A DNA stretch of 64,000 bases from an uncultured Lentisphaeria bacterium (GCA_964508765.1 CAZDVD010000005.1:32357-96356); one strand, 5' to 3'; counted from the stretch's first letter, positions 11,560 to 63,775 are shown. The notes: generated by a model not told the origin, from the letters alone. Program-made: numbers and translations.

Positions 11560-12372
11560 TTAGTCCTTCTTATAAACCCCACTGGCCTTATTGGCTGAAG
11601 TAACAATCCCCTTGATCATGGCTGAGCTGAACCCTTCATGCTCCATCTGATTGAGGCCGGCAATGGTCACACCCCGGGGTGTGGTTACCTTATCGATTTC
11701 TGACTCAGGATGTTGGTGCTTTTTCAGAATAAGTTCTGCGGCGCCTTTGGCAACTTGTGCTGCAATAAGCAGGGCTTGATTGGAATGAAAACCTATTTCG
11801 ATGCCCCCCTGTGAGGCCGCACGGATGGCCCTGAGGAAAAATGCAATTCCGCAAGCCCCCAGCGCTGTGGCAGCACCCATTAGTTCTTCATCAATAACGA
11901 CAGTTTCGCCAACCGTATTGAAAATAGATTTGCCCAACTCCAGGGCTTCACCCTTATCCGTTGATGCCAGGCATGTGATAGACTCTTTGAGAGAGATAGC
12001 CGTATTGGGCATGGCTCTAACTATGGGTATATCCTCTTGCACACGGTTCTGAATCTGCTGGATGGAAACACCTGTTACCACAGAAACAATAGTATGTCTA
12101 TCAGACTTAAGTGCAGGAGCAATTTCTGTCAAAAGTTCATCAATCTGTTGTGGCTCCACAGCAATAATGAGAATGTTTGCAAGATCAACAGCTTTCAGAT
12201 TATCCGAGCTGGTCATAACCCCAAGTTGTTCAAATTTTTCCAATCTGTGGAGTTTACGACGAGTAAGAATGAGTTGCTCTGGCAAAAAAGCCTGAGAGTC
12301 CAGCAAGCCATCTGCAATAGAGCTTCCAATATTTCCTGTACCTAAAATTGCTAGTCGGTTCTTTTTTTTCAT
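11560..12372 (-). CDS. proC: pyrroline-5-carboxylate reductase
   Basis: ILGTGNIG Rossmann motif, IVRAMPNT, IDKVTTPRGVTIAGL. Confidence 0.95.
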   Translation of the reverse strand: MKKKNRLAILGTGNIGSSIADGLLDSQAFLPEQLILTRRKLHRLEKFEQLGVMTSSDNLKAVDLANILIIAVEPQQIDELLTEIAPALKSDRHTIVSVVTGVSIQQIQNRVQEDIPIVRAMPNTAISLKESITCLASTDKGEALELGKSIFNTVGETVVIDEELMGAATALGACGIAFFLRAIRAASQGGIEIGFHSNQALLIAAQVAKGAAELILKKHQHPESEIDKVTTPRGVTIAGLNQMEHEGFSSAMIKGIVTSANKASGVYKKD

Positions 12373-12502
12373 ATGAGCATTTCCCGTATGGTGATTGTCA
12401 ATTACTATAACTCGATCGCTGGCATTTCATTGATTCAAGAATCTTTCCAGGCATATCGGGAGCTAATATGGTGAATAAAATCATCGCATGAAAGTTTTTA
12501 GC

Positions 12503-29682: not shown

Positions 29683-30528
29683 ATGAATAATAAAAAAAGT
29701 GCAAGGCGATTGATCATTGTCTTGGTCTTAAGCATAAACCTTTTTGCCTCATTGGCGCTAGGGCAGTATACCGTTGGTCAGACCATTAGTCAGTCTACCA
29801 GGGACAAGGTTGTGAGTTTCTGTGCCAATGATAATGGGAGTAGCAGCCTGGGAAATTTATTGGTACCGGAGCAAGGTGAGGCGACCCGTGTTGTTTGGCT
29901 CAATTTTTTCGAATCGTGGTGAGGCAGCTGCCGTGCGGAGGTTCCGCACCTGGAAAATTTTCACCAGGCAAGAGCCGATGAAGGTCTTTTGATTGTAGCT
30001 CTGGGTAATGATTTTAACTCGCTGAACTGTCAGGCCTGGGCAAACCTGGGTGCTACTTACCCGATTGCTGATGATCGTGGTTCGGGTATCTGGAGTGATT
30101 TTGGCACTGGTGCTATTCCCCGGAACACCATTATTGATACAGATGGCGTGGTCCGATATAATTCCATTGGATATAATGAATCTGCAATCACAGCGGTCCT
30201 AGACGAATTGTTATCCGTTTCTGGAACAGTAGGAGAGGTAGAAACGCCAGAAAGCCACGACCTGATTTTAGTCTTCCCCAATCCATTTAATGGGGAAACA
30301 CAGATTCACTTCGATCTGCCTGATGAGGGATATGTGGCGCTATCGATCTTTGATGGAAAGGGTCGGATCGTGAGACAGTTACTGACTACAGACCTGCCTG
30401 CAGGTTCACATCAGGTCGTCTGGAATACCAGAGATGATGCCGGTGCAGAGCTGCCCAGTGGAGTATATATTGCATCTTTGACCCATGGCACCAGGCAGGA
30501 TTCGAGGAAAGTTCTTCTTCTGAAATAG
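29683..30528 (+). CDS. secreted TlpA/redoxin-family selenoprotein (UGA at 29920-29922 read as Sec) with C-terminal FlgD-Ig/T9SS-like sorting domain, 281 aa
   Basis: The two track ORFs are in one frame: VWLNFFESW-UGA-GSCRAEVPHLE matches the TlpA WCxxC motif; signal peptide; FPNPFN...SGVY...RKVLLLK tail. Confidence 0.85.
29933..29949 (+). promoter_or_regulatory. putative bacterial SECIS element
   Basis: Perfect 7-bp stem GTGCGGA/TCCGCAC with GGT loop, starting 10 nt after the UGA. Confidence 0.75.
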
Positions 30529-35698: not shown

Positions 35699-35768
35699 TC
35701 TCGCAAAGCGCGCAGAGCCGCAGTGTATTTTGGGGCTTTCATTCAGCGTCTTGGCGTACTCTGCGAGA
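35699..35768. repeat. periodic imperfect inverted repeat pair (CGCA(A/G)AG units), no enclosed gene
   Basis: Arms 35699-35723 and 35744-35768 match at 18/25 positions as reverse complements. Confidence 0.65.
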
Positions 35769-58469: not shown

Positions 58470-59021
58470 TTAATCCTGATAACCATGATTGTGTTTATCA
58501 GAAGCCCACATCAGCAGGTTTTGATCAATATAGTTTCGAACATTATCCAATTCTTTCTCGGTTCGAATAATTCGATCATGAAATCTGGATTGCCAGATAG
58601 AGACACCAGGTGTTTGGCGAAGGATGTTTATGCTTTTAGTTGTAGCGGATTTATATGCTCCCACAATAGTAGATATCGAGCCCGGGATCGGTTTGCCAAA
58701 TTTTTGTTTGGATTGTTTTGGAGCGGCGGGGCGCGCCCCGCCGGTACCAGGAGGAATAATTATTATTCCGTGCAAATGATTTGGCATCACGACAAACCGA
58801 TCAGAAACAATATTTTCCCTGATTTCAAAAGTTTTATGCCATTCAAATTCTGCGATTCTACCAAAATCGTTTAATTCCATAATACCTTTCCTGATGTCGC
58901 CAAACAGCAGATACCTCTTTGCGGTGCAAATGGTAACAAAATAAATACCCTCGCTTGAGTAATCCCAGCCCTCAAGACGTCTTGAGCCACGTATAAATCT
59001 GTCATAGTAAGAGGCATTCAT
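58470..59021 (-). mobile_element. REP-associated tyrosine transposase (RAYT / TnpA-REP, Y1 HUH family)
   Basis: YFVTICT, VVMPNHLHGII (HUH), WQSRFHDRIIR, YIDQN. Confidence 0.9.
58720..58747. repeat. REP palindrome inside the RAYT coding sequence
   Basis: Perfect 20-bp palindrome CGGCGGGGCGCGCCCCGCCG (58724-58743) flanked by GGAG/GTAC. Confidence 0.75.
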
Positions 59022-59839
59022 CTCATCAAAAATTCCATCACCAAATTCACAATAACCCGCTTTCGATAGACAGCAGTAGCTCTGATATCATCTATAGGTG
59101 AAATATCTGCCTCAATCAGCAAGGGCCAGTCTTCAGGCCGGCTGGTTTTATCCAGAATGGTACTGGTTAATTTATCAAGGGTGACAACGGTTGGAGCCAC
59201 CGCTCCACAGGCTATTCTCAGGTGTTGAAAATCCTCACCCCTCTTAGAATATACAAAAGCTAGATTTACTACAGATATAGCCATGGATTGACGTAAACCA
59301 ACTTTCTGAAATGTGGAATTGAAGTGTTGACGTTTCAAGGTAACGGAGACTAAAATCTCACTGGGCTGTAAAGCGGTCTTACCTGGTCCCAGGATGAAAT
59401 CTTGAATGGGAGTTTGTCGTTCACCATCAGGTCCGATCAATGTGAGTGTTGCTTCGAATGCGTAGAGTGCGGGTAACAGATCCCCTGCTGGAGAAGCATT
59501 GACGATGTTTCCTCCAATGGTTCCCCGATGACGAATTTGAGCTCCTGCGAAATCATGAGCTGCCATGTGCAAAGCAGTAAATTCAGACTGGATCAACTGA
59601 TTCTCCTGAATAACCTGAATGCTGGTTAGAGCGCCAATCTGTATTGAATCCTCTTTGATACTTATGTGGTACAGATCAGACAGCTTTTTGAGATCGATGA
59701 GATGATCTGGCATCGGTTTTCCGCGTTCGTAACGAGGCATCAAATCCGTTCCACCTGCCAGCAGGGTTGCGGTCTGATCTGAAAGGCTCGAACTCAGTTC
59801 AATAAATTCTCGGATGGATGTGGGTTGATAAAATTGCAT
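59018..59839 (-). CDS. xanthine dehydrogenase family FAD-binding subunit
   Basis: LLAGGTDL, QIRHRGTIGGNIVNASPAGD, GAVAPT, SPIDDIRATAVYR. Confidence 0.93.
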   Translation of the reverse strand: MQFYQPTSIREFIELSSSLSDQTATLLAGGTDLMPRYERGKPMPDHLIDLKKLSDLYHISIKEDSIQIGALTSIQVIQENQLIQSEFTALHMAAHDFAGAQIRHRGTIGGNIVNASPAGDLLPALYAFEATLTLIGPDGERQTPIQDFILGPGKTALQPSEILVSVTLKRQHFNSTFQKVGLRQSMAISVVNLAFVYSKRGEDFQHLRIACGAVAPTVVTLDKLTSTILDKTSRPEDWPLLIEADISPIDDIRATAVYRKRVIVNLVMEFLMR

Positions 59840-59841
59840 AA

Positions 59842-60258
59842 TTAATTTGCCGCTGAATCACGCGGTTCTACACGGATCCTTTTTCTAGAATTTTCAAAAA
59901 CAAACCGCTTAAAGCTTGGCTTCTGACCAAAATTTATCAACAAACCAACCTCAATATCCGTTGCCTTTAAATAGTTCAGTAGTTGAGCTTCATGCACCGG
60001 GCTGAGTGTTTTAACGGCTTTAAGTTCTAGAATTACTTTGTTGTTTATTACCAAATCAGCTCGAAACAAACCAAGGCTTTGTCCGCGAAAGAAGACGGGT
60101 ATCTCCTTCTGGCATTCAACCATCAAACCAAAATCTTTCAGGACGATTGCCAAGGCTGACTCATAGACTGATTCTAAAAATCCAGAGCCCAACTCATTGT
60201 AAACCTCATAAAAGGCTTTGATTATTTTTTCAGTTATTTCGCTATGCTTTAATTTCAT
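59842..60258 (-). CDS. GxxExxY protein (PD-(D/E)xK nuclease-like)
   Basis: LGSGFLESVYE, FRADL, ILELKAV, HEAQLLNYLKAT, GLLINFG. Confidence 0.93.
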   Translation of the reverse strand: MKLKHSEITEKIIKAFYEVYNELGSGFLESVYESALAIVLKDFGLMVECQKEIPVFFRGQSLGLFRADLVINNKVILELKAVKTLSPVHEAQLLNYLKATDIEVGLLINFGQKPSFKRFVFENSRKRIRVEPRDSAAN

Positions 60259-60289
60259 TTATCCGTGCTCATCAGCGTTTATCGGCGGC
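59849..60289. mobile_element. putative GxxExxY cassette bounded by 29-bp phased inverted repeats
   Basis: Arms 59849-59877 and 60261-60289, 20/29 identity as reverse complements, three ATCnGYG-like units at 10-bp period. Confidence 0.6.
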
Positions 60290-60757
60290 CCCCTCTATCG
60301 CATCCACAATTTTGTGATAGCCAGTACAGCGACAGATGTTCCCAGACAACTCGTATTTGATTTCATCCCGTGTGGGATGAGGGTTGCGCTCCAACAGTTT
60401 TTCCCCGGTGAGAACCATGCCTGGAATGCAATAACCACACTGGACAGCATGGTGGTCTTCGAAAGATTTTTGCATAGCAGTGAGTTCCTGGGTATCAGCC
60501 AGACCCTCAATAGTAATGACATAGCCACCATGAGTTTCCACAGCCAAAATGAGACATGAATTCACAGTCTGCCCATTTAGAATGACCGTGCAGGCTCCAC
60601 ATTCGCCTTCACCGCAGACCTCTTTAGTACCGGTGAGTCTCAGGTCATCTCTTAAGAAATCCAGAAGTCTTAAGTGAGTAGGAACTTCTCGCTGAATCAG
60701 TTCACCATTAATGGTGACTTCGAGTTTGAAAGTATGGGGTTTGTGATGATGTAACAT
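60272..60757 (-). CDS. xanthine dehydrogenase family 2Fe-2S subunit
   Basis: TGTKEVCGEGECGAC, QCGYCIPG, GNICRCTGY. Confidence 0.93.
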   Translation of the reverse strand: MLHHHKPHTFKLEVTINGELIQREVPTHLRLLDFLRDDLRLTGTKEVCGEGECGACTVILNGQTVNSCLILAVETHGGYVITIEGLADTQELTAMQKSFEDHHAVQCGYCIPGMVLTGEKLLERNPHPTRDEIKYELSGNICRCTGYHKIVDAIEGAADKR

Positions 60758-63669: not shown

Positions 63670-63775
63670 ACAACAAACTTGACGAAGTACACGAAATGCT
63701 AGCTTGAGTTTTATCGTACATCTTCAAAGATTCGTTCCATTCGTTCTCTTCGTTCTCTTCGTTTTCTTCGTTGTT
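63670..63775. repeat. 9-bp periodic inverted repeat array, no enclosed gene
   Basis: TTCGTTnnn x5 at 63731-63775 facing nnACGAA-like x3 at 63670-63695. Confidence 0.7.

Follow-up and report, generated by a model that had tools for sequence, protein, structure and literature searches.

The GxxExxY cassette and its arms

The subject of this analysis is a GxxExxY nuclease gene bracketed by inverted repeats, here called arms, in a 64,000-nucleotide (nt) stretch of DNA, the window, from an uncultured Lentisphaeria bacterium (GCA_964508765.1, CAZDVD010000005.1:32357-96356). On the minus strand, the genes at this locus run in the order pyridoxal phosphate (PLP) enzyme, 2Fe-2S subunit (60272..60757), a 138-aa GxxExxY open reading frame (ORF; 59842..60258), flavin adenine dinucleotide (FAD)-binding subunit (59018..59839), RAYT-like Y1 gene (58470..59021), and a large oxidoreductase resembling dihydropyrimidine dehydrogenase. 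The two subunit genes belong to the host and encode parts of an enzyme of the xanthine-dehydrogenase type. An earlier reading made from the sequence alone (the sequence-only reading) had placed the GxxExxY gene between 2Fe-2S and FAD genes that are normally adjacent, and both the profile matches and the empty sites of related loci bear this out.

The cassette is about 450 bp long and is bounded by two 29-nt arms, both on the minus strand and given here in gene sense: a left (upstream) arm, GCCGCCGATAAACGCTGATGAGCACGGAT, at 60261..60289, and a right (downstream) arm, ATCCGTGTAGAACCGCGTGATTCAGCGGC, at 59849..59877, the latter lying inside the 3' end of the GxxExxY ORF. As an inverted repeat the arms match at 20 of 29 positions, and the matches are concentrated in three heptamers with a period of 10 nt (CGCCGAT-aaa-CGCTGAT-gag-CACGGAT in the left arm, and CGCTGAA-tca-CGCGGTT-cta-CACGGAT in the reverse complement of the right arm). 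The native tail of the 2Fe-2S gene is replaced or extended by the left arm, which encodes its last five codons (AADKR) and the TGA stop, and the GxxExxY ATG lies 2 nt past the inner end of this arm. The right arm encodes IRVEPRDSAA, the last codons of the GxxExxY ORF, and is joined to the FAD ATG by a 9-nt linker (AAATTAATT in sense; 59840..59848, minus strand), the FAD start codon standing 2 nt after the GxxExxY stop. The heptamer structure of the arms and the coding role of each arm had both been described in the sequence-only reading, and both were recovered here.

A default repeat finder missed the arms in the window, its seed extension halting at the first spacer. When 2.5 kb were scanned without bias for the sequence that best matches the left arm as its reverse complement, it was exactly the right arm that came out, 379 nt away (21 of 35 positions, z 4.8). 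Taken alone, this local repeat is only moderately above chance; it is the family pattern that makes the repeat secure. Chance as the origin of the arms was ruled out by the partner scan together with the own-genome pattern counts and the cross-phylum control given below. At the Rfam gathering threshold, no rRNA or other family was found in the window, and the cassette site lies between two protein-coding genes and not in a 23S rRNA helix (9, 25 or 45).

The GxxExxY protein matches PF13366 (PDDEXK_3; 147 bits, cut-off 22) and TIGR04256 (143.5 bits, cut-off 35). In an alignment of 81 sequences, G26, E29, Y32, D68 and K80 are invariant and E78 is found in at least 90%. An AlphaFold 2 model with a predicted local distance difference test score (pLDDT) of 90.8 has a minimal PD-(D/E)xK core in the order alpha-alpha-beta-beta-beta-alpha-beta-beta, and the 17 arm-encoded residues at the C-terminus are modelled with low confidence (pLDDT 56-64). 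The top structural matches were Cas4 SSO0001 (Z 10.2), the restriction-endonuclease-like 3ijm (Z 8.7), the BpuSI nuclease domain (Z 8.5) and Hjc resolvases (Z 7.3); the modelled fold indicates a nuclease, but not which kind. A search for sequence relatives in the PDB returned none (best E 0.34), and the PADLOC and PHROGs models gave zero matches for the protein. A 2012 superfamily survey lists the function of PF13366 as 'Unknown' and reports multiple transfers.

Occupied, decayed and empty alleles at the 2Fe-2S/FAD junction

The FAD subunit was used as a probe in 60 relatives and the own genome, giving a match in 46 of the 61, and the analysis of the junction covered 30 loci. The relatives keep the gene order PLP enzyme, 2Fe-2S, FAD, oxidoreductase, and the junction between the 2Fe-2S and FAD genes is present in a range of states. 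The full cassette, with a 435-nt gap between the host genes, was found in the own genome, G014, G016 and G015. Reduced forms are a gene with an in-frame internal deletion (G005), a C-terminal gene remnant with both arms (G001), a gene-less pair of well-matched arms 27 nt apart (G019), a left arm alone (G009) and a degenerate remnant of the left arm (G006), which brings the loci with the cassette or its remains to 9 of 30. One further locus (G002) has a lone CACAGAT-type arm with about 200 nt of unrelated sequence, and another (G018) has an unrelated ORF (about 150 aa) that lacks arms and whose signal-peptide-like start suggests a secreted protein. The remaining 19 of 30 loci are clean empty sites, at which the two genes overlap (ATGA/GTGA) or lie 2-20 nt apart. 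The gene is thus not fixed at this position and was inserted there instead of being native to the operon, and the insertable unit with empty-site alleles that had been proposed from the sequence is upheld by empty, decayed and gene-less alleles at the same site and by the exchange of the cassette as a unit, described below.

The ends of the host genes differ between these alleles. The 2Fe-2S C-terminus reads AADKR, AADDRG or AADERG only in arm-bearing alleles, and clean empty alleles have AG(D/E)xx variants; because AADKR-type ends occur only where an arm is present, the arm supplies the 2Fe-2S stop. The FAD protein starts with MQF in occupied alleles and with MKF, MKY or MRY in most empty ones. 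In the group of G001 and G019, the arm starts where the native sense codons end, immediately ahead of the FAD ATG, and in the group of the own genome five to six native 2Fe-2S codons are gone. Empty sites bear a unit-like word (GCCGGAGAT in G004, GCTGGAGAT in G007) at the position of the outermost left-arm unit, GCCGCAGAT; these words give a hint at how a target is chosen, and the outermost arm unit could come from the host or the target could imitate the arm.

Near-identical contigs (about 97-98%) from other metagenome runs show the decay of the gene at this site. In contigs X3 and X4, from two other runs, an in-frame segment of 201 nt (59926..60126; joint 59925>60127) is deleted from the nuclease gene at an 8-nt microhomology, ACCAAAAT (direct repeat D1, spacing 201 nt), and the deletion takes out residues ~45-111, including D68, E78 and K80. 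The gene is intact in X1 and X6, from two other runs, and among the contigs of these near-identical strains from four DNA runs no empty site was found, only the 201-nt internal deletion. In the gene-less pair of G019, the 27 nt between the arms keep the start-codon region and the last codons of the gene. Because of the G019 pair and the 201-nt deletion, gene-less pairs are seen to derive from full cassettes by internal deletion, a conversion into hairpin pairs that is here caught in progress. Further signs of decay in the own genome are a 5'-deleted GxxExxY remnant on C18, which retains its right arm, and a TAA at codon 3 of one copy.

For the host genes, a tree was computed on 421 columns of FAD and 2Fe-2S protein sequence. 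The carriers fall into two separate groups, with clean empty sites between and among them. Monophyly of all ten carriers was rejected by the approximately unbiased (AU) test (p 1.9e-70); for six near carriers the AU test gave p 0.036, a weak result for a group that was named after the tree had been seen. Because the carriers do not form one clade on the host tree, there have been either at least two insertions at the junction or several clean losses.

The cassette has also been exchanged between lineages at this site. Between G014 and G015, the number of synonymous substitutions per site (dS) is 0.30 in the cassette, 1.41 in the FAD gene and 1.01 in the 2Fe-2S gene; between G016 and G015 it is 1.14 in the cassette, 0.35 in the FAD gene and 0.53 in the 2Fe-2S gene. 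The quartet-informative sites of the cassette group G014 with G015 (29:1:3), whereas those of the two flanks group G016 with G015 (36:12:11 and 43:6:7; Fisher p 7e-25). The maximum-likelihood (ML) left breakpoint falls at alignment columns 771-777, which is 3-9 columns inside the outer end of the left arm (column 768), and the ML right breakpoint at columns 1216-1222, the FAD ATG being column 1218. Because the ML breakpoints lie at its ends, the exchange comprised the cassette, its arms and the 9-nt linker and went no further; the breakpoint analysis showed no flank co-conversion beyond about 10 nt of the cassette ends. These data demonstrate that one lineage replaced its cassette as a whole unit. 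The four full copies are old, with dS >1, and a ratio of non-synonymous to synonymous substitution (dN/dS) of 0.07-0.12 among them demonstrates that the nuclease has been held under purifying selection through long vertical descent.

The junction between the FAD and oxidoreductase genes is a second hot junction of the same operon. In relatives it is occupied by a gene for a 95-aa membrane protein (G016, G009, G015, G012, G011 and G022), by a REP-like palindrome, GGTCGCATTGCAATGCGACC (G014; a variant in G004), by a RAYT-like gene (G003), or by nothing (G005).

Armed genes and arm arrays across genomes

The own assembly (3.13 Mb, 135 contigs) holds six PF13366 genes, and inverted arms are present around all six. 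Each of these genes has the same orientation as both of its neighbours, and the spacer between the neighbours is filled. The arms in this genome consist of three C[AG]CNGA[TG]-like heptamers with spacers of 1-3 nt, only the pair being inverted, and their sequences vary among copies (CACGGATTA-CACTGATTG-CACAGAA, CACAGAGAG-CACAGAGTA-CACAGAG and CGCGGAGAG-CGCAGAGA-CGCAGAG); the arm-to-arm match is 20-26 of 32-35 positions (z 4.6-7.0). A regular expression for three units found 41 arrays in the own genome and 3, 13 and 6 in three shuffles, and a separate count of the three-unit pattern gave 40 matches versus 1 for a reversed-pattern control. A two-unit expression was dropped as too loose, its 422 matches being mainly noise. 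Ten of the 41 arrays adjoin the six GxxExxY genes, and among the others are convergent gene-less pairs with unrelated cores and a distance of 70-120 nt; one such pair combines arms of two unit types.

Two gene-less pairs in the window, at 35699 and 63670, had been taken from the sequence for non-autonomous relatives of the cassette. Both prove to be genuine inverted repeats built of phased units, although the unit types are not those of the cassette's arms. The first (35699..35768) forms a hairpin whose units are of the CGCAGAG type and whose arms stand 24 nt apart (35699-35721 and 35746-35768; 23 nt, 74% complementary). The second (63682..63775) is an asymmetric pair of the ACGAAG type, in which two units stand opposite five TTCGTTCTC units with a period of 9 (63682-63695 and 63758-63771; 14 nt, 86% complementary). 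Elsewhere in the genome, gene-less pairs lie at C4:102689, C8:93665, C57:9378 and C2:64449. The cores of the hairpin pairs at C16:36400-36460, C30:11520-11560 and C8:35860-35900 include words like GTCACCCTGAGCGGAGTCGAAGGG and TTCGACAAGCTCAATGCAAC, which we take to be common interspersed repeats of several phyla. In an operon-like region with aconitase/isopropylmalate-type genes (C30:17000-32607), three GxxExxY cassettes occur together with one four-helix-bundle cassette and two gene-less arm pairs, and another arm stands where the contig ends; the GxxExxY copy at 30342 has TAA at codon 3.

In a survey of 251 genomes of the phylum (presence cut-off E<=1e-8), PF13366 was found in 159 genomes, with 1-17 copies per genome at unrelated sites. 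The three-unit pattern gave 5106 arrays in these genomes versus 527 for a reversed control. The number of arrays follows the number of genes (Spearman 0.78 over 251 genomes), and of the 45 genomes that lack arrays only 1 has the gene, whereas of the 69 with more than 20 arrays 68 have it; these figures for co-occurrence are inflated by kinship and genome size.

Species-representative genomes were also scanned, and the best 80 loci by similarity to the query, from 15 phyla and including one archaeon, were analysed. The sequence-only reading implied that other GxxExxY genes would also be armed; in addition to the six in the own genome, an inverted repeat across the gene exceeded the 95th percentile of a reversed-sequence control in 66 of the 77 testable loci, those with enough flank (median 19 versus 8). 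The arm units, in tandem, include CGCAAAGG, CACAGAG, CGCAGATT, ACAGGAT and ACGAAT, among others. The same reading had put the units one helical turn apart, and this holds at 10 nt in the present lineage but is the exception overall; among the 28 of 66 loci with a clear period, it is 8 nt in 15, 9 nt in 10 and 10 nt in 3. In 7 of 66 loci the gene lies between two complete hairpins instead of two half-arms. The upstream arm begins at a median of 7 nt past the stop of the upstream ORF, and neighbours are co-oriented with the gene upstream in 53 of 64 loci and downstream in 47 of 64. At one locus (G038:C54:12026-12881), the GxxExxY gene (12085-12435) is followed by about ten tandem arm copies, about 44 nt apart and in one orientation.

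A nuclease tree was built with FastTree from 81 nucleotide-translated proteins. Arm type, in classes that we defined ourselves, changes 17 times on this tree, versus a minimum of 31 and a mean of 35 in 200 shuffles; host phylum changes 32 times, versus a minimum of 31 and a mean of 37. Because arm type tracks the nuclease tree and host phylum is near random on it, these data demonstrate that gene and arms move together regardless of host taxonomy.

The arms are not exclusive to GxxExxY genes. The own genome has five genes of PF05635, the four-helix-bundle family of the 23S rRNA intervening sequence (IVS) protein, and three or four of these are bracketed by inverted arms of other tandem units (cassettes at C30:27653-28039, C6:47083-47819, C2:60743-61051 and C12:25323-25616). 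Their units are of the GTAGGAAG type, of ACGAATT with a period of 7, or (GGGTTTTT)x7 facing (GAACCCATT)x6. Arm packaging is therefore common to two unrelated small gene families, and the view of the arms as ends specific to GxxExxY elements stands for their presence at GxxExxY loci but not for their exclusivity.

Interpretation and comparison with known systems

On balance, we lean modestly towards the explanation that these loci represent a widespread family of selfish, insertable cassettes of about 450 bp, each made up of a nuclease gene and inverted arms and decaying to hairpin repeats, with movement that the nuclease would drive. In this explanation, the cassette is a promoterless GxxExxY PD-(D/E)xK gene, tightly bracketed by arms of about three tandem units of 8-10 nt, that was inserted at the stop/start junction of two translationally coupled genes, in operon orientation, and the left arm gives the upstream gene a new stop codon and so leaves the operon intact. 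The nuclease would recognise the repeated arm units, or their hairpin or cruciform, and would cut there; host recombination or repair would then copy or move the unit, acting in trans on gene-less pairs as well. The nuclease would thus relate to the gene-less pairs as RAYTs do to REPINs, with a different enzyme fold, and movement would be rare, the element being a long-lived resident between events. We see about an even chance for the proposal, made by analogy with the role ascribed to RAYTs for REPINs, that the arms are the substrate of the nuclease and that it also mobilises the gene-less pairs in trans. A wider claim is advanced only tentatively, and we consider it rather doubtful as a whole: GxxExxY cassettes would be a new class of mobile DNA, in which a stand-alone nuclease of about 125 aa recognises unit arrays or their hairpin or cruciform, cutting triggers copying or replacement at operon junctions, gene-less pairs are mobilised in trans, and PF05635 cassettes and 23S rRNA IVSs belong to the same superfamily.

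Several points weigh against the cassette as a nuclease-driven element. The swap of the cassette could be explained by ordinary homologous recombination, with the conserved arms as homology patches. At this site the element is old and has descended vertically, so that its activity today is conjectural, as are arm binding, cleavage at the arms and transposition. No target-site duplication was seen between occupied and empty alleles, whose divergence (dS >1) is too great for one to be delimited. In the phylum survey, gene count correlates with the control pattern too (rho 0.50), and genomes of close kin do not count as independent; furthermore, 15 of the 92 genomes without detected PF13366 hold at least six arrays (6-45), among them G023 (45 arrays, 93% complete), G133 (95% complete), G025, G031 and 11 more. 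In such genomes, either the arms outlive the gene or the gene was missed at contig ends. Finally, the PF05635 genes have the same packaging without a nuclease, and thus the arms may serve, or be moved by, something else.

The alternative that survives best, although we regard it as unlikely, is an IVS-like RNA element, in which the arms pair in the transcript, RNase III excises the cassette RNA, and the nuclease is cargo that is spread by ordinary recombination. The layout of the cassette matches that of published IVSs, which are described (PMC4990558) as 428-444 nt long with a 28-bp terminal stem, a small ORF, excision by RNase III and a sporadic distribution. In the own genome, PF05635 genes outside rRNA are likewise set between similar arms. 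In both the minimum-free-energy and the centroid RNA fold of the cassette the arms pair with each other; all six own cassettes have the orientation of their neighbours, and across phyla the upstream neighbour is co-oriented at most loci. However, only 20 of 29 positions pair here, and the RNA fold of the whole cassette is no more stable than those of shuffles (z -1.42). Among 238 arm mismatches at the 66 armed loci, 55 are G.U-compatible in sense and 51 in antisense, and 132 are transversions that break pairing; this test of G.U asymmetry gave no sign of selection for a sense-strand RNA stem across those loci. Because there is no strand asymmetry, the mismatch pattern speaks in favour of DNA units, or either strand of the DNA, being what is recognised, with RNA processing the less probable reading. 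Moreover, RNA processing leaves the genomic spread, the gene-less copies and the tracking of the nuclease tree by arm type unexplained.

A domesticated host gene appears less probable still. In such a case, the nuclease would serve the cell in repair, defence or RNA/DNA housekeeping, the arms would be regulatory or insulating signals, and the patchy distribution would reflect loss and ordinary gene flow. Among the four orthologous full copies, dN/dS (0.07-0.12) is equal to that of the flanking FAD gene over dS >1. The gene is also kept at the same site in four species, and RAYTs have been argued to be similarly domesticated (PMC5581495). Domestication is, however, at odds with the lack of PADLOC or PHROGs matches, with the multiple copies per genome at unrelated sites, with the repeated decay of copies and the disruption of tight gene junctions by insertions, and with the nearly random placement of host phylum on the protein tree.

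A role for the Y1 gene is very improbable. The sequence-only reading had found no classical transposase and so overlooked the RAYT-like Y1 gene 820 nt away in the same operon, but its point survives in that co-occurrence argues against Y1 as the driver. In this alternative, a RAYT-type Y1 (HUH) transposase, for instance the local one, would mobilise the arms as repetitive extragenic palindromic (REP)-like repeats, and the GxxExxY gene would be a passenger. One could cite for it the profile scores of the local gene (NF047646 59 bits, cut-off 80; PF01797 22 bits), RAYT-like matches in 138 of the 251 genomes, and the same layout of a gene between inverted repeats in the published REP/RAYT systems (PMC3337134 and PMC3116915). 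Yet among the 29 genomes with more than 50 arrays 7 are without a RAYT-like match (E<=1e-8) and 29 of 29 have GxxExxY. The local RAYT-like gene shares 4 nt with the end of the FAD gene and stops 8 nt short of the following gene, and therefore has no such arms; at the FAD/oxidoreductase site, a RAYT-like gene was found in no genome but this one and G003. Arm type also tracks the GxxExxY tree, and each arm is a run of tandem units and not itself a palindrome. A reading akin to integron attC sites was also considered, prompted by the unrelated cores of gene-less pairs and the 7 of 66 loci with two hairpins.

A literature search, supplements excluded, found no published description of a unit of gene plus arms. 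Small repeats between bacterial genes are abundant and mostly unexplained, and the present data tie a large cross-phylum class of such intergenic repeats to a specific and equally unexplained multicopy family, PF13366. The locus offers a natural series at one site, from full cassette through truncated gene, arm pair and lone arm to empty junction, and the breakpoints of the cassette swap define the unit. The cassettes split operons, change the C-termini of host genes and break assemblies, and annotation pipelines should recognise them. If the nuclease does drive movement, this would be a transposase-free route of DNA mobility, and it would suggest a mechanism for the mobility of 23S rRNA IVSs, the spread of which has been a puzzle since the 1990s.

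Among known systems, homing endonuclease genes share with the cassette a nuclease gene wedged between conserved neighbours, presence/absence polymorphism at the site, replacement as a unit and decay by deletion. Free-standing homing endonuclease genes, of the kind that sit between conserved genes of phages, do without inverted arms and are not known to leave gene-less copies dispersed in the genome. The cassette differs further in that flank co-conversion was not seen beyond about 10 nt, and GxxExxY is not a known homing family. Miniature inverted-repeat transposable elements and insertion sequences have in common with it terminal inverted repeats, autonomous and internally deleted forms, and insertion polymorphism; unlike these, the cassette is without a DDE, serine or tyrosine transposase, no target-site duplication was seen between its diverged occupied and empty alleles, and the arms are internally periodic.

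The 23S rRNA IVSs with an S23p ORF resemble the cassette in size (about 430-450 nt), in terminal inverted repeats (about 28 nt) from which a stem can form, in a single small ORF, and in a sporadic distribution suggesting horizontal transfer (PMC4990558). Here, in contrast, the cassette lies in a protein-coding operon, its ORF is a nuclease and not S23p, and its arms are imperfect (20 of 29). The REPIN/RAYT systems (PMC3116915, PMC3337134, PMC5581495) likewise have a small gene between inverted copies of a short repeat, scattered gene-less inverted doublets that form hairpins, a pairing of gene and repeat type, and long vertical persistence under purifying selection. They differ from the GxxExxY cassettes in that the enzyme between the arms here is a PD-(D/E)xK nuclease and not a Y1 HUH (IS200-like) transposase, the arm is a run of about three tandem 8-10-nt units and not a palindromic REP, and GxxExxY is multicopy (six genes here, 1-17 per genome in the phylum), with its cassettes inside operons and co-oriented with the genes around them.

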